Source of the DNA: a virus
Taxonomy: Duplodnaviria; Heunggongvirae; Uroviricota; Caudoviricetes
DNA: 64,000 bases
IMG/VR virus record: IMGVR_UViG_2675903278_000002
Strand: one strand, 5' to 3'
Of the stretch, positions 21,277 through 41,620 are shown piece after piece. The position numbers and the translations under genes were made by a program. Each line of letters opens with the position of its first letter. The first letter of the stretch is position 1. The notes under the pieces are model-generated. The model had not been told where the DNA came from. It searched no databases and saw only the letters and a program-made list of their open reading frames with translations.

Positions 21277-21301
21277 AGGCGGTGCATTGCACCGCCTTTT
21301 T
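21277..21301 (+). terminator. Rho-independent terminator
   Basis: GGCGGTGC-att-GCACCGCC followed by TTTTT. It ends 1 nt before the mrp stop codon. Confidence 0.8.
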
Positions 21302-21302
21302 A

Positions 21303-22403
21303 TCACACTGCGCGGAATGCGATTTCGCCAGGTATTACTTCACCTTGCCAATACATTTGGGCAGCAACGCGATCTGCGAGGTCACGATAAATAGCCGTAA
21401 ATTCGCTATCTGGACGACTAATAACGGTTGGTGTTCCGTTATCCAGATCTTCACGAAGAGAGATATGAAGTGGCATTTGGCCTAACAACTGCGTGTTGTA
21501 TTTCTCGGCCAGTTTCTGTGCGCCACCGGTGCCAAAAATTGGCTCGTGATGACCGCAGTTACTGCAAATATGCACACTCATGTTTTCGACGATACCCAGT
21601 ACCGGCACTTCGACTTTTTCGAACATCACAATGCCTTTCTTCGCATCGATCAGCGCGATGTCTTGCGGCGTAGTTACCACAACCGCACCAGTTACAGGAA
21701 TGTTCTGCGCCAGCGTCAACTGAATATCACCAGTGCCCGGCGGCATATCGAGAACGAGATAGTCCAGATCAGGCCATAGAGTTTCCTGCAACATCTGCAT
21801 CAGCGCCTTGCTGGCCATCGGTCCACGCCACACCATTGCATTGTCGTCGGTGACCAGATAACCAATAGAGTTGGTTGCCAGGCCATGAGACATGATAGGT
21901 GCCATGTGAGTACCGTCCGGTGAGGTTGGACGTTGGTTTTCCGCGCCCAGCATGGTTGGAATTGATGGACCATAGATATCGGCATCCAAAATACCAACTT
22001 TCGCACCTTCAGCAGCCAACGCCAGTGCCAGATTTACCGCCGTGGAGGATTTACCTACGCCGCCCTTGCCTGAGCTGACGGCGATAATGTTCTTAACGCC
22101 ATTAATGCCTGGTTGGTTTTTGACGCGCTTAAGCGTGGCAATGTTGTACGACAGCTTCCAGTCAATAGCCTTTGCGCCAGTGATACGGAGCAGATCACCA
22201 CTACATTGCTCTTTCAGGTCTTCAAAAGGCTTATTCCACACGAAAGGCATGATTAGTTCGACATGCAGTGTGTCATCCATCAACGCAACATGGTGTAACG
22301 CTTTAAGCGTAGTCAGGTTGTGTTTCAGGGTTGGGTGCTGAAAATTAGCCAGCGTACCGGCTACCATTGCTCTCAGGGCATCCGGCGATTTGGACTCGCT
22401 CAT
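21303..22403 (-). CDS. mrp: Fe-S cluster carrier ATPase Mrp/ApbC (host-type)
   Basis: 366 aa. Nearly collinear and identical to E. coli Mrp as I recall it (AVSSGKGGVGKSS, CSNCGHHEPIFG). Confidence 0.95.
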   Translation of the reverse strand: MSESKSPDALRAMVAGTLANFQHPTLKHNLTTLKALHHVALMDDTLHVELIMPFVWNKPFEDLKEQCSGDLLRITGAKAIDWKLSYNIATLKRVKNQPGINGVKNIIAVSSGKGGVGKSSTAVNLALALAAEGAKVGILDADIYGPSIPTMLGAENQRPTSPDGTHMAPIMSHGLATNSIGYLVTDDNAMVWRGPMASKALMQMLQETLWPDLDYLVLDMPPGTGDIQLTLAQNIPVTGAVVVTTPQDIALIDAKKGIVMFEKVEVPVLGIVENMSVHICSNCGHHEPIFGTGGAQKLAEKYNTQLLGQMPLHISLREDLDNGTPTVISRPDSEFTAIYRDLADRVAAQMYWQGEVIPGEIAFRAV

Positions 22404-22560
22404 CCCGTCTCCTTTATTTTAATTTGCGCAATTGTCGCCTTGTAGTGTACTCCAGCTACGACATTTAATCATTTATGAGAAATGCTGTTATCACATGGCA
22501 GACATAAGGCCATTTTGTTACTATCAAGCCCCTTTTCACTACAAAGAAGTAATGCCTACT

Positions 22561-24594
22561 ATGACCCAAGTCGCGAAGAAAATTCTGGTGACGTGCGCGC
22601 TGCCGTACGCTAACGGCTCAATCCACCTCGGCCATATGCTGGAGCACATCCAGGCTGATGTCTGGGTTCGTTACCAGCGAATGCGCGGCCACGAGGTTAA
22701 TTTCATCTGTGCCGACGATGCCCACGGTACGCCGATCATGCTGAAAGCACAGCAGCTTGGTATCACACCGGAGCAGATGATTGGCGAAATGAGTCAGGAA
22801 CACCAGACTGATTTCGCAGGCTTTAACATCAGCTATGACAACTATCACTCGACGCACAGCGAAGAGAACCGTCAGTTGTCTGAGCTTATCTATACTCGCC
22901 TGAAAGAGAACGGTTTTATTAAAAACCGCACTATCTCTCAGTTGTACGACCCGGAAAAAGGCATGTTCCTGCCGGATCGTTTTGTAAAAGGCACCTGCCC
23001 GAAATGTAAAGCGCCAGATCAATACGGCGATAACTGTGAAGTCTGCGGCGCAACATATAGCCCGACTGAATTGATCGAGCCGAAATCGGTGGTTTCTGGC
23101 GCTACCCCGGTAATGCGTGATTCCGAACACTTCTTCTTTGATCTGCCTTCTTTCAGCGAAATGTTGCAGGCATGGACCCGCAGCGGCGCGTTGCAGGAGC
23201 AGGTGGCGAACAAAATGCAGGAATGGTTTGAATCCGGCCTGCAACAGTGGGATATCTCCCGAGATGCGCCTTACTTCGGTTTTGAAATTCCGAACGCGCC
23301 GGGCAAATATTTCTACGTCTGGCTGGACGCGCCGATTGGCTACATGGGTTCCTTCAAGAATCTGTGCGACAAGCGCGGCGATACCACCAGCTTCGATGAA
23401 TACTGGAAGAAAGACTCCACCGCCGAGCTGTACCACTTCATCGGTAAAGATATTGTTTACTTCCACAGCCTGTTCTGGCCTGCCATGCTGGAAGGCAGCA
23501 ACTTCCGCAAGCCGACCAACCTGTTTGTTCACGGCTATGTGACGGTGAACGGCGCGAAGATGTCCAAGTCTCGCGGCACCTTTATTAAAGCCAGCACCTG
23601 GCTGAATCATTTTGACGCCGACAGCCTGCGTTACTACTACACTGCGAAACTCTCTTCGCGCATTGATGATATCGATCTCAACCTGGAGGATTTCGTTCAG
23701 CGCGTGAATGCCGATATCGTGAACAAAGTGGTTAACCTGGCCTCCCGTAATGCAGGCTTTATCAACAAGCGTTTTGACGGCGTGCTGGCAAGCGAACTGG
23801 CTGACCCGCAACTGTACAAAACCTTTACTGATGCCGCTGAAGTGATTGGCGAAGCATGGGAAAGCCGCGAATTTGGTAAAGCTATCCGTGAAATCATGGC
23901 ATTGGCTGACCTGGCTAACCGCTATGTCGATGAACAGGCTCCGTGGGTGGTGGCGAAGCAGGAAGGACGCGATGCCGATCTGCAGGCGATTTGCTCTATG
24001 GGCATTAACCTGTTCCGCGTGCTGATGACGTACCTGAAGCCGGTACTGCCGAAACTGACTGAACGTGCAGAAGCATTCCTGAATACAGAACTGACCTGGG
24101 ATGGTATCCAGCAACCGCTGCTGGGCCATAAAGTAAATCCGTTCAAGGCACTGTATAACCGCATCGATATGAAGCAGGTTGAAGCACTGGTGGAAGCATC
24201 CAAAGAAGAAGTGAAAGCCACAGCCGCACCGGTAACTGGCCCACTGGCTGACGACCCGATTCAGGAAACTATCACCTTTGACGACTTCGCCAAAGTTGAC
24301 CTGCGCGTGGCGCTGATTGAAAACGCAGAGTTTGTAGAAGGTTCTGACAAACTGCTTCGCCTGACGCTGGATCTCGGTGGTGAAAAGCGTAATGTCTTCT
24401 CAGGCATCCGTTCCGCTTATCCAGATCCACAGGCACTGATTGGTCGTCACACCATTATGGTGGCTAACCTGGCACCACGTAAAATGCGCTTCGGTATCTC
24501 TGAAGGCATGGTGATGGCTGCTGGCCCCGGCGGGAAAGATATCTTCCTGTTAAGCCCGGATGCTGGTGCTAAACCTGGCCACCAGGTTAAGTAA
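22561..24594 (+). CDS. metG: Methionyl-tRNA synthetase (host-type, full length)
   Basis: 677 aa from ATG 22561 ([25 protein letters not shown]..., KMSKS). Only scattered substitutions relative to E. coli K-12 MetG as I recall it. The track ORF start at 22432 is upstream read-in. Confidence 0.97.
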
Positions 24595-24613
24595 TTAAAC
24601 AACCTCTCTTCGC

Positions 24614-30569: not shown

Positions 30570-31052
30570 ATGAATTTTATCGCTACTGTAAACGCACCCG
30601 CACATGGCAATATCGCTGTAACGTTCTCTGACATTGAAAAACGAGTACTTGGTGCATGGCGCGACAATGAGACGGTAGAACTGTCAGCACAAGAAAAATG
30701 CATTATTGCACGCGACATCATTGGCAATCGTCGTTACTCGCGGGTATTTGAGAAAGCGTATGTGGTAAATTCTGGGTTCGGAACGTTCGTCTTTCCGGTG
30801 CGCTCCGGGCGATTCTGCCAGTCCAAGCTGATTGAGTTCGCTACGCAGATTTCTGTCTGGATTAAAACTCAATCGTCGTTCAAATTTTCCGACGATGAAG
30901 CAGTATCGCAGGGGATGCGGATCGCCAACAATGCGATTAAATGCAAAAACATTACGTATACCGCTGGCGTTGATACATGGAAACTGTTTTGCGCTAACTT
31001 TATGCTGAATGTATACGCAAGCAACCGCATCCACATCCTTGATGGCGTGTAA
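30570..31052 (+). CDS. Hypothetical protein (cassette 7)
   Basis: 160 aa. SD AAGGA upstream. Confidence 0.5.
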   Translation: MNFIATVNAPAHGNIAVTFSDIEKRVLGAWRDNETVELSAQEKCIIARDIIGNRRYSRVFEKAYVVNSGFGTFVFPVRSGRFCQSKLIEFATQISVWIKTQSSFKFSDDEAVSQGMRIANNAIKCKNITYTAGVDTWKLFCANFMLNVYASNRIHILDGV

Positions 31053-31058
31053 CTGAGA

Positions 31059-31084
31059 AGAGGGCCAGAAACGGCCCTTTCTCT
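31059..31084 (+). terminator. Rho-independent terminator
   Basis: AGGGCC-agaaac-GGCCCT followed by TTCTC. The loop contains the iteron core CAGAAACGGC. Confidence 0.6.
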
Positions 31085-31099
31085 ATAGCCACCAGCTGC

Positions 31100-31180
31100 C
31101 GCAGGGAAATTTTCAGAAACGGCGAGGAACGTATTCATAAGCCGACGGGAAACGGCCAGGATTTTTTCGGGAAACGGCTG
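31100..31180 (+). repeat. Second iteron-like set (GGGAAACGGC family)
   Basis: GCAGGGAAAT, CAGAAACGGCG, CGGGAAACGGCC and CGGGAAACGGCTG. The last two are 22 bp apart. Confidence 0.55.
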
Positions 31181-31279
31181 CATTCGCCTTTATGTAGAAA
31201 AAAACATCGGGAAGCTGGTGGAATCCAACCAGCGGTTGTCGGACAGGCGAGCGGGGAAAATTATGATGACTTTCGTCGC

Positions 31280-31590
31280 CTGAGACATCCAGATTTCTTT
31301 CGTAGCATAATCACATACGTGATTAAGTGGTGTGATTATGTGAAAAATCACGCGCACATAATACGCGAGCGGATACGGAACAAAACAAAATGCCGATCCG
31401 CGCCGACAAATAAACGCGGATCACATAGCAAGAATAAAAGCCAATGATTAGCCATACGTTATAGCGCAATATAACGCATTTTAAGCGCGTTAATGTGCTA
31501 AGTAATGGGTATGTACTGGTAAGGATATAAAAGCGCGTCTATGGCGTTATTTTGGCGCTTATTTTTATGTTGTTGGAGTGAGTTAAAGAC
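31280..31590. other. ORF-free AT-rich region with nested inverted repeats
   Basis: CATAATCACA (31306) pairs with TGTGATTATG (31331), enclosing AATCAC-atac-GTGATT. GATCCGCG (31395) pairs with CGCGGATC (31415). Confidence 0.45.
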
Positions 31591-31593
31591 AAT

Positions 31594-31664
31594 AAAAAAC
31601 GCGCCATCATTGGCGCGCTATGGTGGGAGTATTGGAAACGAAAAAAGCGCCCATAGTGGGCGCT
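31594..31664 (-). terminator. Tandem rho-independent terminators for the minus-strand module
   Basis: Read on the minus strand: AGCGCCCA-cta-TGGGCGCT+TTTTTT, then CGCGCCA-atga-TGGCGCG+TTTTTT. Confidence 0.8.
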
Positions 31665-31669
31665 CGATT

Positions 31670-31900
31670 TTATTTGTGTAAACTGATTTTAAATCCCATT
31701 TCTACAAACGCTTTTAACATTAAAAATATATCAGCGTCGTTGATTCCAATATCCGAACGCTCAATATCATTTAATAAATCAATTTTACGCGTTGTTTCAT
31801 CGATAAACTCGACTGAGCGCCCAGCGTAACCAGCGATCCCAGCGATGCGATTAACAAAATATTCATTGCGCACGTTAACGCCAGCGATAAGAACAAACAT
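31670..31900 (-). CDS. Hypothetical protein
   Basis: 76-aa ORF, AT-rich. Confidence 0.45.
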   Translation of the reverse strand: MFVLIAGVNVRNEYFVNRIAGIAGYAGRSVEFIDETTRKIDLLNDIERSDIGINDADIFLMLKAFVEMGFKISLHK

Positions 31901-31921
31901 GATAAAGCTCCTTAAAAAAAA

Positions 31922-32125
31922 TTAAATAGAATTTTGAAGTTTTCCGATTAATGCGCTTAAACGTAAGTATTCACGTTTGCGCTTGCAATCTCGCTTGCTG
32001 TTGAGCAAATCAGAAAACGTAAAATTTAATTGGTCGCGTTGCGCGATCAAATCATCGATTAATTCCAGTTTATAAGCGCGATACTTTGCGCGATATTCCG
32101 CGCGGATCTTGTCATAGCTGACCAT
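31922..32125 (-). CDS. Hypothetical coiled-coil protein
   Basis: Start moved to ATG 32125, which has AAGGAG 8 nt upstream. The track start at 32170 would read through a hairpin. Confidence 0.45.
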   Translation of the reverse strand: MVSYDKIRAEYRAKYRAYKLELIDDLIAQRDQLNFTFSDLLNSKRDCKRKREYLRLSALIGKLQNSI

Positions 32126-34720: not shown

Positions 34721-36280
34721 CTAATCTCGTTTCAGAACTCCAAAATCGAATGCTCCATCAATAGGCAATACACCTTCTGCAAAGCCAGGTGTGGTGTCGA
34801 TGATGTGTTTTCGCTCATAAGAGTGAGACAACAGGTATTTGTTGCTAATGTCAATGAAATCAGTGATAAAACACACGTTTGCCTGATTTTTTTTGGCTCG
34901 TAAGCCACGACCGACACGCTGCCTCATTTCAACTTCTGCTTTTCCACCACCAGCCAGAATGACCGCACCAACGCTTGGCACATCAACACCGACATCCAGA
35001 ATAGTCGAGCCTATTAAAACATCTATTTCGCCAGACGCTAAACTGTTCAGCTTTGCTTGCCTTGTCGCCTGGTTCGATTCCCCATAGATGAAGTCAACTT
35101 TAAGACCTGACTCCTTCATCATCTCCATCAGGATTTGCCCGTGGCGTTTAAGACGAACCAGAGTCATGCAATTGAGAGAATGTTGCTTATAGAGCAATGC
35201 TTCGCGCACAATGGCCTCGTTACGTCCCAAATTATACACGATCCCCAACTGATAAGCCTTTTGGTAGGCTGTGCTCATACCTACTCTAAAATTAAGGTGT
35301 TTGTTGGCAAGTTCCGCCTTGATTCTGACCTCGTCTGGCTTGTAAGCAACTTTATGATAAAGGAAGTACGGTTTTGCCAGAATGCCTCGATCAATCAGGT
35401 ACTTTTCTGTGACTTTAATTTCAATTCGACCGGCCACAGCCATCAGACGCATGTTGGCTTCTGTAGAATCCTTCATGAACGGCGTGGCCGTAAGCGCCAG
35501 ACGATAGTCTGCGTTCACACATAATCTGGCAATGTCATAGAAATTAGAGCCTGAAGACTCATGCGCTTCTTCCAGAATAAGCAGAGACACACTTGAAAGG
35601 AAGCGTTTCACCAACTCCCGACGTTTGAGGTGGTAGCTTTTCTTATCTGGTGTTGCATCGCGTGGTGGTTCTTCGAGGAAACTTGCAAGAGTTTGAACTG
35701 TAGCGACGTTGATATGTCGTGATACCTGGAACTCACCCGAGCCAATGACTCCAACCTTTTGGTCTTTTAACCACGGTTCGCCATTTTCGGCGCGGTAGTC
35801 GATGGATCTCTGGAAGTTTTCGGCCATTTGAAACATCAGAACAGAGCGGGTTGTTAAAAATAATGTCATTCGACCGATACGTGCAGCTGCTTTGCAGGCA
35901 ACGTTAGATTTCCCGCCACCAGTAGCGATCTGCGCAATCATCATTCCCTCTCGAACCAGTGTTTCCACAGTCTGATCCTGATACGCATAATCAGGATTGT
36001 ATGGGAATGGGTTAACCGCCGGATTTGGTTTACCAAGCGCCGGGGCTTTGTCTTTGCGGATATGAACACATTTGATGCCCGCCTTGTTCAAGTTCGCCGC
36101 TACAGGCTTGGCAAAGCCAGCAGGGAACGAGTTTTTACTCCAGTTGAACATCGTGCTTGTGCCCTTCCAGTCGCCAGTCTCGACTTCGTAGCTCAACATT
36201 TGCTGCACCAGTTGCTTTACCTTGTCATCTGCGCCAGAAATAAGCGCATTTACTGCGTTAGATACAATCCGAACAGTCAT
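34721..36280 (-). CDS. Superfamily-2 DEAD/DEAH-type helicase
   Basis: Motif I IATGGGKS, motif II LLILEEAHE, motif III LTATP, motif VI QRVGRGLR. Confidence 0.8.
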   Translation of the reverse strand: MTVRIVSNAVNALISGADDKVKQLVQQMLSYEVETGDWKGTSTMFNWSKNSFPAGFAKPVAANLNKAGIKCVHIRKDKAPALGKPNPAVNPFPYNPDYAYQDQTVETLVREGMMIAQIATGGGKSNVACKAAARIGRMTLFLTTRSVLMFQMAENFQRSIDYRAENGEPWLKDQKVGVIGSGEFQVSRHINVATVQTLASFLEEPPRDATPDKKSYHLKRRELVKRFLSSVSLLILEEAHESSGSNFYDIARLCVNADYRLALTATPFMKDSTEANMRLMAVAGRIEIKVTEKYLIDRGILAKPYFLYHKVAYKPDEVRIKAELANKHLNFRVGMSTAYQKAYQLGIVYNLGRNEAIVREALLYKQHSLNCMTLVRLKRHGQILMEMMKESGLKVDFIYGESNQATRQAKLNSLASGEIDVLIGSTILDVGVDVPSVGAVILAGGGKAEVEMRQRVGRGLRAKKNQANVCFITDFIDISNKYLLSHSYERKHIIDTTPGFAEGVLPIDGAFDFGVLKRD

Positions 36281-36325: not shown

Positions 36326-36345
36326 ATAAGTAAGTGATTACTTAG
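36326..36345. promoter_or_regulatory. Box B palindrome copy in the divergent helicase/ParB-like intergenic region
   Basis: ATAAGTAAgtgaTTACTTAG. Confidence 0.55.
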
Positions 36346-36362
36346 TGGATTGTAGCAATAAA

Positions 36363-37043
36363 ATGGATGTAAAAATCACGATTTTGCAGGTTGATGTTGC
36401 CAACCTTCGCCCGAATACCTGGAACACCAATTCGGTTGGTGCGCAGAATTTTGAAAAACTGAAAGGTTCTATCGAAAAATTGGGCTTTTTTAAGCCAATT
36501 TTGGCTCGTGAACTTGAAGATGGATTTTTTGAAATCCTCGGCGGTGAACATCGCTGGCGTGCTGCTATTGAGCAAGGAATTTCAACGGTTCCGGTGCTTT
36601 CTGTGGGCAAAATTAGCGATGTCGTAGCTAAACAGATGTCACTGGTGGACAACGAGCGATACGGTGAAGACGACCAAATCGCATTGCAACGCTTCATTGA
36701 AGAAATTCAGTCAGAACTTGACTATCAACTGTCTGAAATCGCCCCGTATGACGACGAAATCTCGATGGTTTTAGCAAAAGAGGCGGCAATCGACCTTGAA
36801 GCACTGGAGGCGTTGTCTCGTGGTAGTGATGAGCCTGTCGATACCGACAAACGAGAGAAAACCGAACGTGTGGGTGCGGAACATCAGACCATGCGCTTCA
36901 AAGTAACTTTCGATGCGTCAGATCGTGTTGCAGAAACCATAAAAAACATCATCAAAGAGCAGGCTATTAACACCGGTAATGAAATGGAGAACGCTGGTGA
37001 GGCTCTGGTGTGGCTGGTCGACTACTACAAGGAGCGTATGTAA
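36363..37043 (+). CDS. ParB/Srx-fold (ParB N-terminal domain) protein 1
   Basis: PILARELEDGFFEILGGEHRWRAA carries the GxxHR ParB box. The start is either ATG 36363 or GTG 36345. Confidence 0.7.
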   Translation: MDVKITILQVDVANLRPNTWNTNSVGAQNFEKLKGSIEKLGFFKPILARELEDGFFEILGGEHRWRAAIEQGISTVPVLSVGKISDVVAKQMSLVDNERYGEDDQIALQRFIEEIQSELDYQLSEIAPYDDEISMVLAKEAAIDLEALEALSRGSDEPVDTDKREKTERVGAEHQTMRFKVTFDASDRVAETIKNIIKEQAINTGNEMENAGEALVWLVDYYKERM

Positions 37044-37711
37044 TGACCAAAAAGTTTGAAATCGTATATCGCGACCCGGCAGATCTTATTCCCTATGAGA
37101 TGAATGCCAAAAAGCATGATGAACAGCAGATCAGAGATTTGGCCGCAGCCATTAAAAAGCGCGGATTTGACCAGCCAATTACGGTCGATAAGAACGACGT
37201 AATTATTACTGGCCACGGCCGCCGTGAGGCTGCAATTTTTGCTGGACTTGAGCGCGTACCGGTTATTGTTCGTGATGATCTGAGTGATGACGAGGTTCGT
37301 GCGAAGCGCCTTGAAGATAACCGACTTGCCAGCATTGATTACGATGCAATTAAGCTACAGAAAGAGCTTGAGTCGCTTGTTCTGGACGATATTGAGGTTT
37401 TCGGCTTTGAAGAGCGTGAGTTGAATGTTCTCGTTGGCAGTATGACAGAAGAAATGGACACCGACTCGCTAGTTATCGATCTTGGCGAAGAAACTAAACG
37501 ACAGAAGGATGAACACACCGAGATCAGTCGTGAAGTTGCAGCGGAAGAAGTACGTGTTGTCGACGTATTGGGCTTTAAAACGCTCCCTGCTGGCTCTGCC
37601 ATTGTTGTTGGTGATTTGCTTGCCCATATGGAAGAAATGACGGGAGAAAGCGGGGTAGACGCATTTGTGGCATATGCGGAGAAGATCTCTTCCGGGGAGA
37701 TGGCTGCATGA
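37043..37711 (+). CDS. ParB-like nuclease-domain protein 2
   Basis: TAATG coupling with AAGGAG upstream. Motifs QPITVDKNDVIITGHGRREAA and VPVIV. Confidence 0.7.
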   Translation: MTKKFEIVYRDPADLIPYEMNAKKHDEQQIRDLAAAIKKRGFDQPITVDKNDVIITGHGRREAAIFAGLERVPVIVRDDLSDDEVRAKRLEDNRLASIDYDAIKLQKELESLVLDDIEVFGFEERELNVLVGSMTEEMDTDSLVIDLGEETKRQKDEHTEISREVAAEEVRVVDVLGFKTLPAGSAIVVGDLLAHMEEMTGESGVDAFVAYAEKISSGEMAA

Positions 37712-38373
37712 GCAAATACATCATCAACGTATCGTTTCAGACACGCGTAAATAAAACCACGCGCACGTTGGAAATCGCTGAGTCGTTCGGGCTTGGCCTG
37801 GACGAAAAAGAGTGGACGCTTTACGACAATCTGGAGCTGGAAGTGAAGCAGGGCGATGTGGTGTACATCACCGGCCAATCCGGTTCCGGCAAATCCGTTG
37901 TGCTGCGCGAGTTGCAACGACAGATGAAGGATGAAGGGCTGTCTGTAGCCTCCATCGATGATTTTACCTTCGATAATGAGGTTAACGTCATCGATCAGTT
38001 GGGCAAAACGACCAGTGATGCGCTTGGGTTGTTATCTATGGCTGGTCTGAACGATGCATATCTGTTTGTTCGCAAGCCTTCTGAAATGTCAGACGGCCAG
38101 AAATATCGTCTCAAGATTGCCAAACTGATTGAGTCAGGCGCTAAAGTATGGGCTGCTGACGAGTTCGGCGCTGTTCTCGACCGTGTAACCGCTCAGGTTG
38201 TGGCGTCTAACCTCCAGCGTGCCGCTCGAAAGGTTGGTGCGACGGTAATGGTGGCGACGACTCACGAAGACCTGAAGAACGCGCTGCGCCCTGATATGCA
38301 GATCACCAAGCACTACAAAGAACGCGTGAAGGTGGAATATCACAATGGTAGTCATGATGAGGTCCATTCATGA
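37708..38373 (+). CDS. Soluble ABC-type ATPase
   Basis: Walker A GQSGSGKS, signature MSDGQKYR, Walker B VWAADEF, H-loop TTHE. ATGA overlap with the upstream gene. Confidence 0.75.
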   Translation: MSKYIINVSFQTRVNKTTRTLEIAESFGLGLDEKEWTLYDNLELEVKQGDVVYITGQSGSGKSVVLRELQRQMKDEGLSVASIDDFTFDNEVNVIDQLGKTTSDALGLLSMAGLNDAYLFVRKPSEMSDGQKYRLKIAKLIESGAKVWAADEFGAVLDRVTAQVVASNLQRAARKVGATVMVATTHEDLKNALRPDMQITKHYKERVKVEYHNGSHDEVHS

Positions 38374-39260
38374 CGGACATCATCATTAAACGCTACCGCC
38401 CTGAAGAGTTTCCGCGTCATCTGGACTTTCTGGAGCGAATGACTGTTACAAAGGGAACTGTAGAGGACTGGCACGCTCTTAAGTCGCTTCACTACAAAAC
38501 AGACGGCAAACCTTTCGCGCCAACTTACTATCGCTGCGAACTTGATGACCGTCTGGTGGGCGTCGTGGTTATGGCTTACCCGAAACTACTGTTGGCACCT
38601 CGCCACCGCATGTTTCCTAAGTTGAAACCAACCACTAATACCACCGTGGCTAACCAGTACTGGGGTCGGTACGTGAATAACAACTTTGCGGTGATCAGTC
38701 GCTCAGTTGTGGATACTCAGTATCGTGGCGTAGGCGTCTCTTATAGAATGATTAACCTGGTTAGCAGGATGCATGACCGGCCAATCATTGAGATCCAGTC
38801 CTCGATGAGCAAATACAATCCCTTCGCCATGAAAGCAGGGTTTAAGTTCATCCGCCCTGAGCGACCGAAGAGCTATGAAAGTGCACTGCGTGTGTTCCAG
38901 CGCCATTTCCGCTCCGACCCGGGTGATAACGAGGCGATCGTCAAAGAGTTGTTCGCTATGAGCGAGTCTCGTCGTCGCCGTGCGCTGCGCGATTTGGTGG
39001 CGGACTACCATAAGAACAGTTCCCTGGCAAAAGCTGGGCGGAATCGTGGCACGACGATTCAGGACATTGCCGACAGTCTGGTGGACGAGGCCAGCATTGT
39101 GAAGCTGCTCAAGGACATTCACAACCTGAGCTTTACGTCTCCGTTGTATGGTGTGTACCGAAACCCTGACTTTGGCCGTCGACTGCCTGACACGCTGCCA
39201 CTGCTGGCATTCGACAAACAACCTTTGGATAAACCGTTAGAAATTGCTTTACCGGCATAA
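38370..39260 (+). CDS. Hypothetical protein with GNAT-like acetyltransferase core
   Basis: ATGA overlap with the upstream gene. VDTQYRGVGVSYRMI resembles GNAT motif A (Q/RxxGxG/A). Confidence 0.45.
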   Translation: MTDIIIKRYRPEEFPRHLDFLERMTVTKGTVEDWHALKSLHYKTDGKPFAPTYYRCELDDRLVGVVVMAYPKLLLAPRHRMFPKLKPTTNTTVANQYWGRYVNNNFAVISRSVVDTQYRGVGVSYRMINLVSRMHDRPIIEIQSSMSKYNPFAMKAGFKFIRPERPKSYESALRVFQRHFRSDPGDNEAIVKELFAMSESRRRRALRDLVADYHKNSSLAKAGRNRGTTIQDIADSLVDEASIVKLLKDIHNLSFTSPLYGVYRNPDFGRRLPDTLPLLAFDKQPLDKPLEIALPA

Positions 39261-39269
39261 GGATTTGCC

Positions 39270-39536
39270 ATGACGTTAACCGACAAACAAAAGGACATCA
39301 TCAAAACGCTCAATCTCGGTTATGAGCGAGGTCATCTACTTGACCTGGACGAATTGCTTGAAGTTTTGCCGTACAAGACAACCAAGCAAAGTATCCAGTT
39401 CTCAATTCGCGCTCTGATAAAAAAGGGGCTGGTGGAGAAAGGGCATACGCGCCAACGCAGTGACAATCGCTATCACCGCCGGACTCTTGGGTTAACCACT
39501 TTAGGTCGAGCCAAAGCGAAGTTACTGGTGATGTAA
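39270..39536 (+). CDS. Small winged-helix (MarR-like) DNA-binding protein
   Basis: 88 aa, with TKQSIQFSIRALIKKGLVEK. Confidence 0.5.
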   Translation: MTLTDKQKDIIKTLNLGYERGHLLDLDELLEVLPYKTTKQSIQFSIRALIKKGLVEKGHTRQRSDNRYHRRTLGLTTLGRAKAKLLVM

Positions 39537-39558: not shown

Positions 39559-39637
39559 GACCTGCATCTGTATATATAAATAATAAGTAACTTATTAAAT
39601 ATATACGGAAGCAGGCTTCGTAAGACATGCCAGACCT
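39559..39637. repeat. Long AT-rich hairpin element, copy B
   Basis: GACCTGCATCTGTATATATAAATAATAAGT-a-ACTTATTAAATATATACGGAAGCAGGCT, plus the conserved CCAGACCT. The centre contains a Box B-like AATAAGTAACTTATT. Confidence 0.65.
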
Positions 39638-39651
39638 AATTAAACACCCCA

Positions 39652-39666
39652 GAAAACAAGTTGGTT
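39652..39666. promoter_or_regulatory. Box A palindrome copy (degenerate)
   Basis: GAAAACAAGTTGGTT. Confidence 0.5.
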
Positions 39667-39676
39667 AGCAGATGCA

Positions 39677-39692
39677 GTAAACAAGTTGTTTT
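39677..39692. promoter_or_regulatory. Box A palindrome copy
   Basis: GTAAACAAGTTGTTTT, 39 nt upstream of the terS ATG. Confidence 0.6.
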
Positions 39693-39721
39693 AGAGCGCA
39701 TGGACGCGCTCTGTGTGTTTT
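39693..39721 (+). terminator. Leader hairpin upstream of the packaging operon (terminator-like)
   Basis: AGAGCGC-atggac-GCGCTCT followed by gtgtgTTTT. The U-tract is not contiguous with the stem. Confidence 0.4.
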
Positions 39722-39731
39722 AGAGGGATCT

Positions 39732-40364
39732 ATGACGGTCGAAAAAGACGAGGTAAAAACTCGCCTGACACCAGCGGAGTGGGCCGAAGCTGAAGCCAAA
39801 TGGACGTCAGGCGAATATACACTCTCAAAGCTGGAGGAAGAGTACGGCATTCGTCGTGAAACACTCTCCAGACATTTCAAAAAGCGAGGATTAGAGAAAG
39901 GCGCGGACTCTGTTGGGAAGATGGTTCGTGAGTCTCTTAAATCTGACGCAGAGCTTCGCGCTAAAGCCCGTGCGGAAAAGATAGAAGAACGTCGTACACG
40001 TTATGACGGCTGGGCGTATGCGTTGGGGCAGATGGTGATGGTCGAAGTCACTACGGCCAAACGTGAGGGTAAGCCTTTAGGGGCGATTGAGGATTCTCTC
40101 AAGAGCTTACAGAGAGCCAGTAATACCCTTGCAAAATGCTTTGAAGTTTCGTCCAAAGCATTGGGCATGGATCATGCGGAAAATGACGAGGAAGAAATTC
40201 CGAACCTGGTATTTGGTGAGCTTACGCCTTCCCAGGTGGCGAAATTACGTCAGGAAGACGACGAGCCTGAAATCATCGATGACGAATTGCTTGAGACGTT
40301 GGAAGAAGAAGCTCTAAGCGAATTTGATGCGACAGATGATGGAAGTGAAGGGGAGGACGAATAA
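39732..40364 (+). CDS. Terminase small subunit (putative)
   Basis: Lies immediately upstream of, and is ATGA/TAATG-coupled to, the large subunit. N-terminal HTH-like LSKLEEEYGIRRETLSRHFKKRG and an acidic C-terminus. Confidence 0.65.
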   Translation: MTVEKDEVKTRLTPAEWAEAEAKWTSGEYTLSKLEEEYGIRRETLSRHFKKRGLEKGADSVGKMVRESLKSDAELRAKARAEKIEERRTRYDGWAYALGQMVMVEVTTAKREGKPLGAIEDSLKSLQRASNTLAKCFEVSSKALGMDHAENDEEEIPNLVFGELTPSQVAKLRQEDDEPEIIDDELLETLEEEALSEFDATDDGSEGEDE

Positions 40365-41620
40365 TGGCAATCCCGTCCTCGCTCAGTCTTGTGCAACTGC
40401 ATTCTGGACAGATGAAAGTCTTCCAGTCTCCGCATCGATTTAAAGTTGTTTGTGCTGGTCGACGCTGGGGAAAATCCCGGTTGTCGATCTCCACTATTAT
40501 TCGTGCGGCGGCAAAGGAAAAAAAGCAAAGAGTCTGGTATGTCGCTCCTACTTACCAGATGGCTCGCCAGATTTTGTGGGACGATCTACAGGAAGTTCTG
40601 CCTCGTAAGTGGGTTAGGAAAAAGAACGACACCACGATGACAATCGTGTTGAAGAACGGTTCGGAGATCGCCCTCAAAGGTGCTGATAAGCCTGACACTC
40701 TGCGCGGCGTAGCGTTGCATTTTGTAGTGCTTGATGAATTTCAGGATATGAAGGCTGACACCTGGTACAAGGTGTTACGACCTACTCTTTCATCGACACG
40801 CGGCGGTGCACTGATCATTGGTACGCCAAAAGGCTTCTCGGAATTTCACAAACTGTGGACTATAGGCCAGAACGTAGAGCTGCAAACAAAGGGACAGTGG
40901 AAGAGCTGGCAGTTTGTAACTGCCGATTCTCCGTTTGTACCTACGGCGGAAATTGAAGCTGCTAAGAACGATATGGACCCGAAATCGTTCGCTCAGGAGT
41001 ACCTGGCGAGCTTTGAGAACATGTCCGGGCGCGTTTACTACCCGTTCGATCGTAACGTGCATGTAAAACCGCTTCAGTTCAACCCTCGGTTGCCTATATG
41101 GGTAGGGCAGGACTTCAACATTGACCCGATGTCTTCAGTAATTTTGCAACCTCAGCCAAATGGTGAGCTATGGGCAATTGATGAATTGGTGCTCTTTTCC
41201 TCTAACACGGCAGAGGTTTGTGATGAGCTTGAGAGACGCTTCTGGCGCTGGAAATCACAGATAACGGTATTTCCAGATCCGGCAGGTGCTTATCGCCAAC
41301 ATGCTCGCGGGGAGTCTGACGTCGACATATTCAAAGAGAAGGGATTCTTACGTGTCGATTATTCGAAAAAGCACCCGCCAATTGCGGATCGTGTTAATGC
41401 TGTTAACCGAATGCTGATGACCGCATCTGGAGATATCCGGCTGTATATCGATCCGAAGTGCAAGCATTTGATTGATTCACTGGAAAAAGTCATCTACAAG
41501 CCTGGAACACGAGATATGGATAAGACAGGTGGCATTGAGCATAGTGCAGACGCATTGGGCTATCCAGTACATCGTAGGTATCCAGTCAAAAACCGTGTTA
41601 TTCTTGGTGGTTCTCGATAG
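40364..41620 (+). CDS. Terminase large subunit
   Basis: Walker A-like VCAGRRWGKS, Walker B HFVVLDEFQD, and a C-terminal nuclease-type DPAG region. Confidence 0.85.
   Translation: MAIPSSLSLVQLHSGQMKVFQSPHRFKVVCAGRRWGKSRLSISTIIRAAAKEKKQRVWYVAPTYQMARQILWDDLQEVLPRKWVRKKNDTTMTIVLKNGSEIALKGADKPDTLRGVALHFVVLDEFQDMKADTWYKVLRPTLSSTRGGALIIGTPKGFSEFHKLWTIGQNVELQTKGQWKSWQFVTADSPFVPTAEIEAAKNDMDPKSFAQEYLASFENMSGRVYYPFDRNVHVKPLQFNPRLPIWVGQDFNIDPMSSVILQPQPNGELWAIDELVLFSSNTAEVCDELERRFWRWKSQITVFPDPAGAYRQHARGESDVDIFKEKGFLRVDYSKKHPPIADRVNAVNRMLMTASGDIRLYIDPKCKHLIDSLEKVIYKPGTRDMDKTGGIEHSADALGYPVHRRYPVKNRVILGGSR

Follow-up and report, generated by a model that had tools for sequence, protein, structure and literature searches.

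A conserved block of ParB-fold, ABC ATPase and GNAT genes beside the terminase genes of SSU5-type phage-plasmids, and its possible role as an acyltransferase acting on phage DNA

The 64,000-nucleotide stretch of viral DNA analyzed here (IMG/VR record IMGVR_UViG_2675903278_000002, Caudoviricetes; the whole stretch is referred to as the window) carries at positions 36326-39536 a cassette of five genes, which encode two ParB-fold proteins (ParB1 and ParB2), an ABC ATPase, a 296-aa GNAT-fold protein and a small basic protein, located just before the terminase genes. The cassette is strictly collinear with a helicase gene on one side and with the TerS, TerL and portal genes on the other, and its ABC ATPase and GNAT genes each correspond to one half of a family of fused proteins, ABC-GNAT (COG2401). 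The reading that we tentatively favor, although we still place it below an even chance, is that the cassette encodes a ParB-fold-guided, ATP-dependent acyltransferase that would have phage DNA as its target shortly ahead of packaging and would probably acylate it.

The ABC ATPase and GNAT genes as the split form of a fused family

All five open reading frames (ORFs) and their junctions were found on the + strand, in agreement with a first-pass annotation of this DNA which had described five genes tightly coupled by TAATG or ATGA overlaps; the peptides quoted there (LGGEHRWRAA, ITGHGRREAA, MSDGQKYR and QYRGVGVS) were all located as well. ParB1 (36363-37043, with the ATG at 36363 being the start in RefSeq and in the record of Escherichia phage Cyrano, and a GTG at 36345 as an alternative start) is linked to ParB2 (37043-37711) by TAATG at 37041-45, ParB2 to the ABC ATPase (37708-38373) by ATGA at 37708, and the ABC ATPase to the GNAT gene (38370-39260) by ATGA at 38370; the fifth gene (39270-39536) comes 9 nt after the GNAT gene, with an AAGGA ribosome-binding site in the gap.

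The ABC ATPase, a single-domain protein, is the most conserved member of the cassette. It scored 50.1 bits against ABC_tran (cut-off 25), with CbiA below its own cut-off at 19 bits, and its best matches among solved nucleotide-binding domains reached an E-value of 2e-13. The Walker A (GQSGSGKS), signature (SDGQ), Walker B (VWxADEF), D-loop (LD) and H-loop (TTHxD) motifs are invariant in eight orthologues from alpha- and gammaproteobacterial phages, which share 53-57% identity; a Q-loop region is present as well. No membrane partner or permease was found for it, its neighbors being the helicase, ParB-fold, GNAT, winged-helix and terminase genes, and the earlier description of a soluble ABC-type ATPase distinct from ParA was upheld. 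Since none of the five cassette proteins contains a transmembrane-like segment (maximum 19-residue Kyte-Doolittle mean of 1.46), the database label "ABC transporter" is a misnomer. Weak matches to the ATPases of defense systems were also obtained with PADLOC, that of mad3 at 1.8e-13.

In the case of the 296-aa protein, which had been called GNAT-like, the fold was borne out by structure prediction while the sequence test by hidden Markov model (HMM) fell short. Acetyltransf_10 scored 14.4 bits against a gathering score of 23.6 (E 0.037), no match was detected in NCBIfam or PADLOC, and sequence comparison with PDB gave E-values of at least 0.98; strands 1-7 and helices 1-4 of the GNAT fold were all recovered, the assignment being settled by structure prediction alone. 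By the order of its secondary-structure elements the protein is one GNAT domain, into which ~90 helical residues are inserted between helix 4 and strand 6, and on this basis an arrangement of a GNAT domain plus a separate C-terminal domain was rejected. Among 35 split and 25 fused homologues, the acyl-CoA pyrophosphate-binding motif A (R119-G-V-G122-V-S) and motif B (N150-P-F-A153-x-x-A-G157-F158) are both conserved. Positions R119 and G122 of motif A and N150, A153, G157 and F158 of motif B are invariant or almost so, and residues H41, Y42, R111, R119, G122, E141, M146, F152 and Y260 are invariant across both families. Judged from these alignments, the catalytic motifs of the GNAT protein and of the ATPase are intact and under strong purifying selection. 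A search of the BFVD library of viral structures returned no close homologue of the GNAT model; an entry named "Amidoligase enzyme" was among the matches.

A profile built from the GNAT alignment was searched against 1.84 billion representative proteins and returned 873 relatives, many of them of 440-500 aa with an N-terminal ABC_tran domain and the GNAT domain at the C-terminus; such ABC-GNAT fusions made up 67 of the 268 proteins analyzed. The ABC ATPase of the window is 46-48% identical to the ATPase part of two of these relatives, P0160 and P0206, a distinctive N-terminal AExFGLG motif included, the GNAT halves of split and fused forms match each other with E-values from 1e-15 to 1e-27, and some fused relatives exceed the whole-protein Acetyltransf_1 cut-off of 20.7 with 25.6 and 21.5 bits. 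Because each of the two genes is homologous to one half, in the order ABC then GNAT, we assign them by homology to the COG2401 family as its split form. The 296-aa protein is in fact named [quoted passage not shown] in JGI and in the Cyrano record.

Larger fusions were found too. Single chains with the order ParB_N-ABC-GNAT are represented by P0199, P0225, P0226, P0228 and three Bathyarchaeia ORFs, their ParB domain bearing NPN and DGEHR motifs; they copy the architecture of ParB-methyltransferase proteins, with GNAT taking the place of the methyltransferase. P0206 (1260 aa; loci L013 and L014, 6001-9783) joins a complete family-B DNA polymerase (PolB) to ABC-GNAT; on its contigs, which are uncultivated, it is accompanied by genes for Prim-Pol, RecA/Rad51, RNA ligase and an SMC-like ATPase as part of a replication module of virus-like character, and the index of the assembly collection lists it in 35 blocks. 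The ParB-ABC-GNAT and PolB-ABC-GNAT fusions indicate joint action of the ParB fold with the ABC ATPase and the GNAT protein, and the ParB and PolB fusions point to DNA as the likely target of ABC-GNAT.

Another fused relative, P0166 (847 aa), contains an intein (Hint plus a LAGLIDADG homing endonuclease) within its ABC ATPase domain. Inteins usually occupy conserved positions of essential proteins of DNA metabolism.

The two ParB-fold proteins

ParB1 and ParB2 scored 49.9 and 35.2 bits respectively against ParB_N (PF02195, cut-off 26.3) and bear the GxxRxxA phosphate-binding motif, which places both in the ParB/Srx fold and agrees with the two distinct proteins of this fold expected from the first reading of the sequence. 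ParB1 belongs to phrog_723 (2e-79) and begins with a ParB/Srx (ParB-CTPase fold) N-domain, which an acidic linker joins to a conserved element of ~50 aa at the C-terminus; the profile of its N-domain matches the solved structures of Noc, Spo0J and ParB at E 8e-15. ParB2, its paralogue, is 33% identical to it over the N-domain and resembles PadC and KorB in the structure comparison. Alignments of both proteins to solved ParB, Noc, PadC and KorB cover the N-terminal ~95-115 residues only, beyond which there is an acidic linker of 65-75 residues (isoelectric point, pI, of 4.1) and then the short conserved C-terminal element. The two proteins also remain below the cut-off of the full-length ParB model TIGR00180, ParB1 with 43 bits against 58.

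ParB2 is of the subtype that is otherwise found fused to phage DNA methyltransferases (phrog_498, 1.7e-31; PADLOC MTase_II, 2.9e-17). A survey published in 2025 reported that ParB-methyltransferase fusions (N6/N4) are enriched in phages and prophages, without assigning them a role, and described a ParB-acetyltransferase fusion that binds GTP, also with no function assigned; according to the same work the nucleotide specificity of the ParB-CTPase fold is not reliably predicted by sequence or by AlphaFold3 (PMC12704722).

Conservation of the block and its link to the terminase genes

Our survey of viral genomes comprised 80 diverse IMG/VR contigs retrieved with a distant query; the counts refer to loci with enough flank. 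The helicase was present in 59/59, ParB1 in 63/63, ParB2 in 65/65, the ABC ATPase in 71/71, a small protein directly after GNAT in 79/79, TerL in 69/69 and the portal in 56/58 of them, and TerS was detected in 66/76 by a single-sequence search. Order and orientation were uniform across the set: a divergent UvsW-type helicase, ParB1, ParB2, ABC ATPase, zero to three small variable ORFs, GNAT, the small basic protein, a gap of 130-330 nt, a TerS-like gene, TerL and portal. Co-occurrence of the five genes, on which the first-pass annotation had staked its proposal of a functional set, was kept in every relative examined. In the window the helicase gene (UvsW/DEAD-type; Pfam ResIII, DEAD and Helicase_C; phrog_16) occupies 34721-36280 on the - strand, and directly after the cassette there follow on the + strand the TerS-like gene (39732-40364) and TerL (40364-41620; Terminase_6N, 37 bits), with the portal gene next; Terminase_6N and phrog_867 are the evidence given for the TerS-TerL pair.

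At a protein identity of ~41-44% the block is found in Pseudomonas phage nickie, Rhizobium phage RHEph10, Stenotrophomonas phage BUCTxx99 and Xanthomonas phage JGB6, and it is also present on an Ectothiorhodospira contig and on metagenomic contigs, one of them of 3.27 Mb; the divergent helicase lies upstream in nickie, RHEph10, BUCTxx99 and loci L003-L005 as well. Nickievirus Nican01 is predicted to be virulent and has long direct terminal repeats (PMC11256456). With the same block in predicted-virulent Nickievirus phages, in the Rhizobium, Stenotrophomonas and Xanthomonas phages and on the 3.27-Mb contig, the block is independent of a plasmid lifestyle.

Small variable ORFs with no Pfam match were observed at junctions of the block, mostly between ABC and GNAT (L002 10013-10267; L003 7705-7995; L004 6961-7999; L005 6332-6640 and 7262-7736; L009 5646-5981; L010 4336-4755 and 5393-5895); the junction ORFs of L004 include Gp49-family and RyR-domain proteins, and the E. 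coli window has none. The ABC/GNAT junction seems to be a hotspot of insertions that split an ancestral fusion.

Since the 80 contigs represent one virus lineage, their synteny alone is no proof of joint function. A scan for the fused proteins using one genome per species yielded 545 loci, and the gene context was taken from the best 80 of the 545. Those 80 are mostly from Bathyarchaeia, with some from Nitrososphaeria and Methanocella and a few from bacteria. In 50 of them, from proviruses of Bathyarchaeia and Methanocella, a Terminase_6N TerL lies immediately upstream of ABC-GNAT on the same strand, preceded by a helix-turn-helix (HTH) TerS-like gene and tail genes (tail tube, HK97 gp10-like). 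On its downstream side ABC-GNAT borders on ordinary cellular genes (YidC/EMC3-like insertase, cytidylate kinase, AP endonuclease), so that ABC-GNAT is the last gene of these proviruses; it has to be added that these archaeal loci form one related provirus family. Two Bacillota prophages have yet another order, ABC-GNAT, Amidoligase_2, a small ORF, TerL and an SPP1-type portal. Thus ABC-GNAT is located beside packaging genes in three virus groups with three gene orders, and the terminase link predates the SSU5/Nickievirus lineage. The Amidoligase_2 gene of the two prophages (PF12224, E 2e-47) spans 8510-9400 in L016 and 8874-9347 in L015.

The gap before terS contains in the window a palindrome of 55 bp (39561-39615) with an AT-rich center, TAAGTAACTTA, whose 17-nt arms match at 17/17 positions in SSU5. 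In GenBank the linear records of these two phages, SSU5 and Cyrano, break at about the first base of its right arm, and comparable long inverted repeats are found in the gap before terS in the distant relatives L003, L004, L005 and L010. This palindrome could be a genome terminus, a cos/pac site, a protein-loading site or an assembly artefact. Beyond it, at 39650-39725, a pair of direct repeats of 17 nt, CAGAAAACAAGTTGGTT and CAGTAAACAAGTTGTTT, precedes a GC-rich hairpin (39692-39713) that is bracketed by two exact copies of TGTTTTAGAG, directly 5' of the ribosome-binding site of terS.

These findings also suit a packaging-accessory complex, an alternative that we consider possible yet doubtful. 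According to it, the ParBs and the winged-helix protein would assemble at the palindrome by terS and, together with the ABC ATPase, prepare the concatemer for the terminase by marking, bridging or clearing it, while GNAT would acetylate not DNA but a protein (terminase, portal or a DNA-bound nucleoid protein such as HU or Alba). It is favored by the position of ABC-GNAT beside TerS/TerL in the SSU5/Nickievirus phages (69/69), in the Bathyarchaeia and Methanocella proviruses (50/80, directly downstream of TerL) and in the Bacillota prophages despite the differing gene orders, by the conserved large inverted repeat at which two GenBank records end, and by the divergent neighbor, which is always a UvsW-type helicase, in T4 a DNA-maturation enzyme; protein lysine acetylation is moreover the commonest GNAT chemistry. 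However, well-studied tailed phages package their DNA without such proteins, adjacency at provirus ends may reflect insertion of cargo, and an assembly break or a copied convention may explain why the two records end at the palindrome. Otherwise fitting the same data as the acyltransferase reading, a role in packaging only is a poor match to the fusion with a replicative family-B polymerase.

A possible ATP-dependent acyltransferase acting on phage DNA

An acyltransferase acting on phage DNA is the model best supported by the intact enzymes, the subtype of ParB2, the fusions and established precedents. Among the latter, Mom has a GNAT fold and modifies adenine in DNA, TmcA acetylates cytidine by means of a GNAT domain coupled to an NTPase, DpdB is the ParB-like ATPase of a DNA base-exchange system, and the ParB-like DndB belongs to a DNA-modification system. 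The cassette would operate as one functional unit, in which the ABC ATPase and the GNAT protein form the core of an ATP-dependent acyltransferase that in many other viruses is a single polypeptide, and the two ParB-fold proteins, as nucleoside triphosphate (NTP) switches and probably with the 88-aa winged-helix protein, would direct it to phage DNA. Expressed from its own promoter beside the packaging operon, the unit would work on replicated phage DNA ahead of packaging; an acyl group might be transferred from acyl-CoA to DNA bases in a Mom-like or TmcA-like manner, with the ATPase providing base access or processivity, and progeny DNA might in this way gain a protective mark against host nucleases. 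The DNA substrate, the base acylation, the timing, the protective role and the choice of the DNA-recognizing protein are all points that we infer.

The GNAT protein and the fifth protein are basic (pI 9.8 and 10.2, respectively), as would suit such a role, and TerS/TerL adjacency recurs in three virus lineages with differing gene orders. Neighboring genes agree with it too: in the Bacillota, besides the amidoligase, one prophage has a weak Dam-like methyltransferase gene just upstream of ABC-GNAT, and in Nitrososphaeria an SNase nuclease gene follows ABC-GNAT.

Several observations weigh against this reading. ParB1 and ParB2 are strongly acidic (pI 4.5; ParB1, 4.55), structure and profile comparisons revealed in them no HTH of the kind found in DNA-binding ParBs, and their C-terminal elements match no known DNA-binding fold; for these reasons the step of a ParB clamp on DNA is weak, and, the ParBs being acidic and HTH-less, DNA recognition would fall to the basic GNAT protein or to the small protein. 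Most archaeal ABC-GNAT genes occur without any ParB. The GNAT model matches Mom no better than it does ~190 other GNATs; Mom (PDB 8bv8) ranked 26 among the PDB GNATs with ~10% identity, and was rejected as a specific homologue. Most GNATs acylate proteins or small molecules. The strict synteny in SSU5/Nickievirus could be plain inheritance, and adjacency to TerL in proviruses may not reflect function, since prophage ends are landing sites of cargo and terminase-side genes there are often accessory. Finally, no modified base was reported for SSU5-like phages in the literature searched, and to our knowledge no anomalies have been reported for the hundreds of these plasmids that have been sequenced; the operon may be silent in the plasmid state.

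A bolder version of the acyltransferase reading takes the cassette as a new viral DNA hypermodification machine, an ABC-ATPase-driven GNAT acylating the bases of double-stranded DNA; ParB-fold nucleotide switches would recruit the machine, and it would be linked with either replication (PolB fusions) or packaging (terminase adjacency). It would range from the SSU5 supergroup phage-plasmids, including plasmids of Yersinia and Salmonella, to viruses of Bathyarchaeia, and we regard it as rather improbable.

In a further alternative, which we judge unlikely, the unit is a host-directed or counter-defense effector whose acyltransferase and ATPase inactivate a host factor (for example a defense protein, a tRNA or a nucleotide signal), and the ParBs serve to sense NTPs as regulators or are acidic decoys. 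Some known toxins are GNATs that acetylate aminoacyl-tRNA, the ATPase resembles defense ATPases to some degree (mad3, 1.8e-13), and both ParBs have long acidic linkers of pI 4.1. Orphan ParB-fold proteins on mobile elements have also been linked to possible anti-defense roles (PMC12704722). Nevertheless, the GNAT protein itself has no PADLOC match, the module is a strictly conserved core block where counter-defense genes usually vary, and the PolB and ParB fusions point to DNA.

The fifth protein, the control region and Box B

The 88-aa product of the fifth gene (phrog_900, 2e-45) had been called a winged-helix protein. It is a small, basic protein of DNA-binding type, as expected, and the winged helix proper was weakly supported: MarR-like matches had an E-value of 0.004, Sta1/Lrs14 matches of 0.003-0.004 and the PADLOC CARF C-terminal region of 4.5e-5, and matches of LexA type were weak too. 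It may load or target the enzyme, or be a late-gene regulator instead.

The divergent control region shared with the helicase (64-82 nt) contains, as had been claimed, a real Box B palindrome, TAAGTGATTACTTA, at 36331-36344, just downstream of a TATAAT at 36321-26. The pattern TAAGT-N4-ACTTA occurs six times in the window against 0.01 expected (4594, 28803, 36331, 43125, 48620 and 62044), in early and structural regions and always 3-120 nt upstream of the start of a + strand gene; if transcribed, it would form a 5-bp stem with a 4-nt loop. It is kept in close E. coli relatives and was not found in SSU5 or in the distant relatives that keep the five genes. Because of this absence Box B was rejected as the universal recognition site of the module, and TAAGT-N4-ACTTA may be a lineage-specific operator or RNA hairpin signal.

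The first-pass annotation had left four readings open, namely DNA modification or marking, a KorB-like regulator set, a packaging accessory and a conflict system. DNA marking and packaging accessory came out favored, and the KorB-like set lost ground, as the ParBs have no KorB-type HTH and a pI of 4.5. As a KorB/KorA-like transcriptional set, the ParB switches and the winged-helix protein would control late (packaging and structural) transcription via Box B, with ABC and GNAT as passengers. The small basic winged-helix gene indeed lies directly before the late operon, like many phage late activators, and Box B overlaps the promoter region of the operon, its six copies preceding + strand genes. 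We hold this set to be very unlikely nonetheless: ParB1 and ParB2 lack any KorB-type HTH or DNA-binding domain, ParB is covalently joined to ABC-GNAT in other genomes, Box B is missing from SSU5 and all the distant relatives keeping the five genes, and the best-conserved members are enzymes. A KorB with its HTH operator-binding domain accompanied by a KorA partner was not found in the cassette.

The cassette is not a partition locus

In the literature found, genes of the ParB1/ParB2 type are treated only as "parB, parB-like" partition genes, without experiments (PMC8085198, PMC7969092). Both proteins contain ParB_N, and "ParB-like partition protein" is also their annotation in SSU5, nickie and RHEph10; a role in plasmid partition is thus implied by database annotation and by the tallies of those phage-plasmid surveys. 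We found this alternative extremely unlikely, and the cassette is not a partition locus. The earlier statement that it is no canonical ParAB cassette was confirmed, as the operon has no ParA (its sole ATPase is ABC-type by Pfam) and both ParBs remain below the full-length model, lacking its central HTH and C-terminal dimerization domain. A tblastn search of the window with the ParA-type protein of the plasmid family gave no match. The block is moreover not confined to replicons needing active segregation, being present in predicted-virulent Nickievirus phages and on the 3.27-Mb contig, and some E. coli assemblies contain chimeric ORFs (P0027, P0030) in which pieces of separate cassette genes are combined.

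A MinD/ParA-type ATPase of 222 aa (MipZ, AAA_31, E 7e-14) with a 117-aa partner was found at 30915-31942 of plasmid pAVS0223-B (NZ_CP124417.1), ~30 kb from the cassette on the same plasmid type and outside the window. This pair is the likelier true partition locus of the plasmid type.

Origin of the window and side observations

Over positions 36326-39536 the identity is 99.0% with Escherichia phage Cyrano and 85% with Salmonella phage SSU5. A match to this region was found in 772 PLSDB plasmids, and in 719 of these it extended over 80% or more of the region. The matches were from Klebsiella (307), Escherichia (218), Enterobacter (91), Yersinia (62) and Salmonella (49), mostly non-mobilizable plasmids with IncFIB-type replicons. 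Based on these identities and plasmid matches, we place the window, as an E. coli representative, in the supergroup of SSU5 phage-plasmids that PMC7969092 describes.

Elsewhere in the window, a stretch at ~21300-24600 with raised G+C content (0.49-0.51) encodes a full-length methionine-tRNA ligase and an ApbC iron-sulfur carrier, according to the annotation of the close relative pAVS0223-B (metG, apbC; L006 4991-8282). In E. coli assemblies we also noted chimeric ORFs (P0027, P0030, P0332 and P0333) that are 89-100% identical to the window and combine ParB with the GNAT C-terminus, ABC with GNAT, or a minor tail protein L domain with ParB; they suggest natural deletions in or around the cassette of some plasmids, persisting in assemblies.

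Implications

It is already known that the cassette genes belong to large PHROG families and that the fused family is a named, uncharacterized COG. The literature search found no functional study of the cassette or of the COG2401 family, and no paper treating the block as a unit, linking it to the terminase or testing its function; a report on nicked Pseudomonas phage DNA (PMC11780129) turned out to be unrelated to the cassette. Hundreds of sequenced clinical Enterobacteriaceae plasmids carry these genes mislabelled as partition proteins and an ABC transporter, an annotation that is corrected here. At least one screening scheme has as its phage-plasmid marker an SSU5 parB gene, which may be ParB1 or ParB2. 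Our results place COG2401 in a first biological context, that of tailed viruses and beside the terminase, and supply a concrete multi-protein case among the newly surveyed non-partition proteins of the ParB-CTPase fold. DNA acylation, if true, would be a new route of phage DNA modification, of relevance to biotechnology, to sequencing artefacts and to the ways in which phages escape restriction and CRISPR; the packaging alternative, if true, would mean a new terminase accessory common to bacterial and archaeal viruses.

Comparison with known systems

One close relative is COG2401 (prototype MK0520; common in Bathyarchaeia and other archaea), whose two halves are matched by the ABC and GNAT proteins of the window in the same order, the catalytic residues and helical insertion of GNAT included; the window differs in having two genes that overlap by ATGA, plus two separate ParB-fold genes and a winged-helix gene. 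As COG2401 is uncharacterized, membership in it explains no mechanism. ParABS and KorB-KorA share with the window ParBs the N-terminal ParB-CTPase fold with a GxxRxxA-type motif, but the cassette has no ParA, no HTH domain for centromere or operator binding and no canonical dimerization domain, its ParBs are acidic, and it is found in non-plasmid viruses. In Dpd and Dnd systems a ParB-fold protein, an ATPase and a DNA-modifying enzyme are clustered, as is proposed for the window, and DndB is discussed in PMC12704722; genes of DpdA/TGT, DndC or DndA type were not found, nor did PADLOC detect any Dnd or Dpd protein beyond weak generic ATPase and helicase matches.

The phage fusions of ParB_N with a DNA methyltransferase (PF02195 plus N6_N4_Mtase; phrog_498) have the ParB subtype of ParB2 (1.7e-31) and, like the window unit, set a ParB fold ahead of a group-transfer enzyme and are enriched in phages and prophages; the window has ABC and GNAT, the latter acyl-CoA-dependent, in place of an S-adenosylmethionine-dependent methyltransferase. 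Mom of phage Mu works without an ATPase or ParB partner and, by fold comparison, showed no specific relationship to the window GNAT protein. TmcA/NAT10, which acetylates cytidine in RNA, resembles the window in the concept of joining an NTPase module to a GNAT domain, and in TmcA/NAT10 it is nucleotide hydrolysis that drives the acetylation of the nucleobase.

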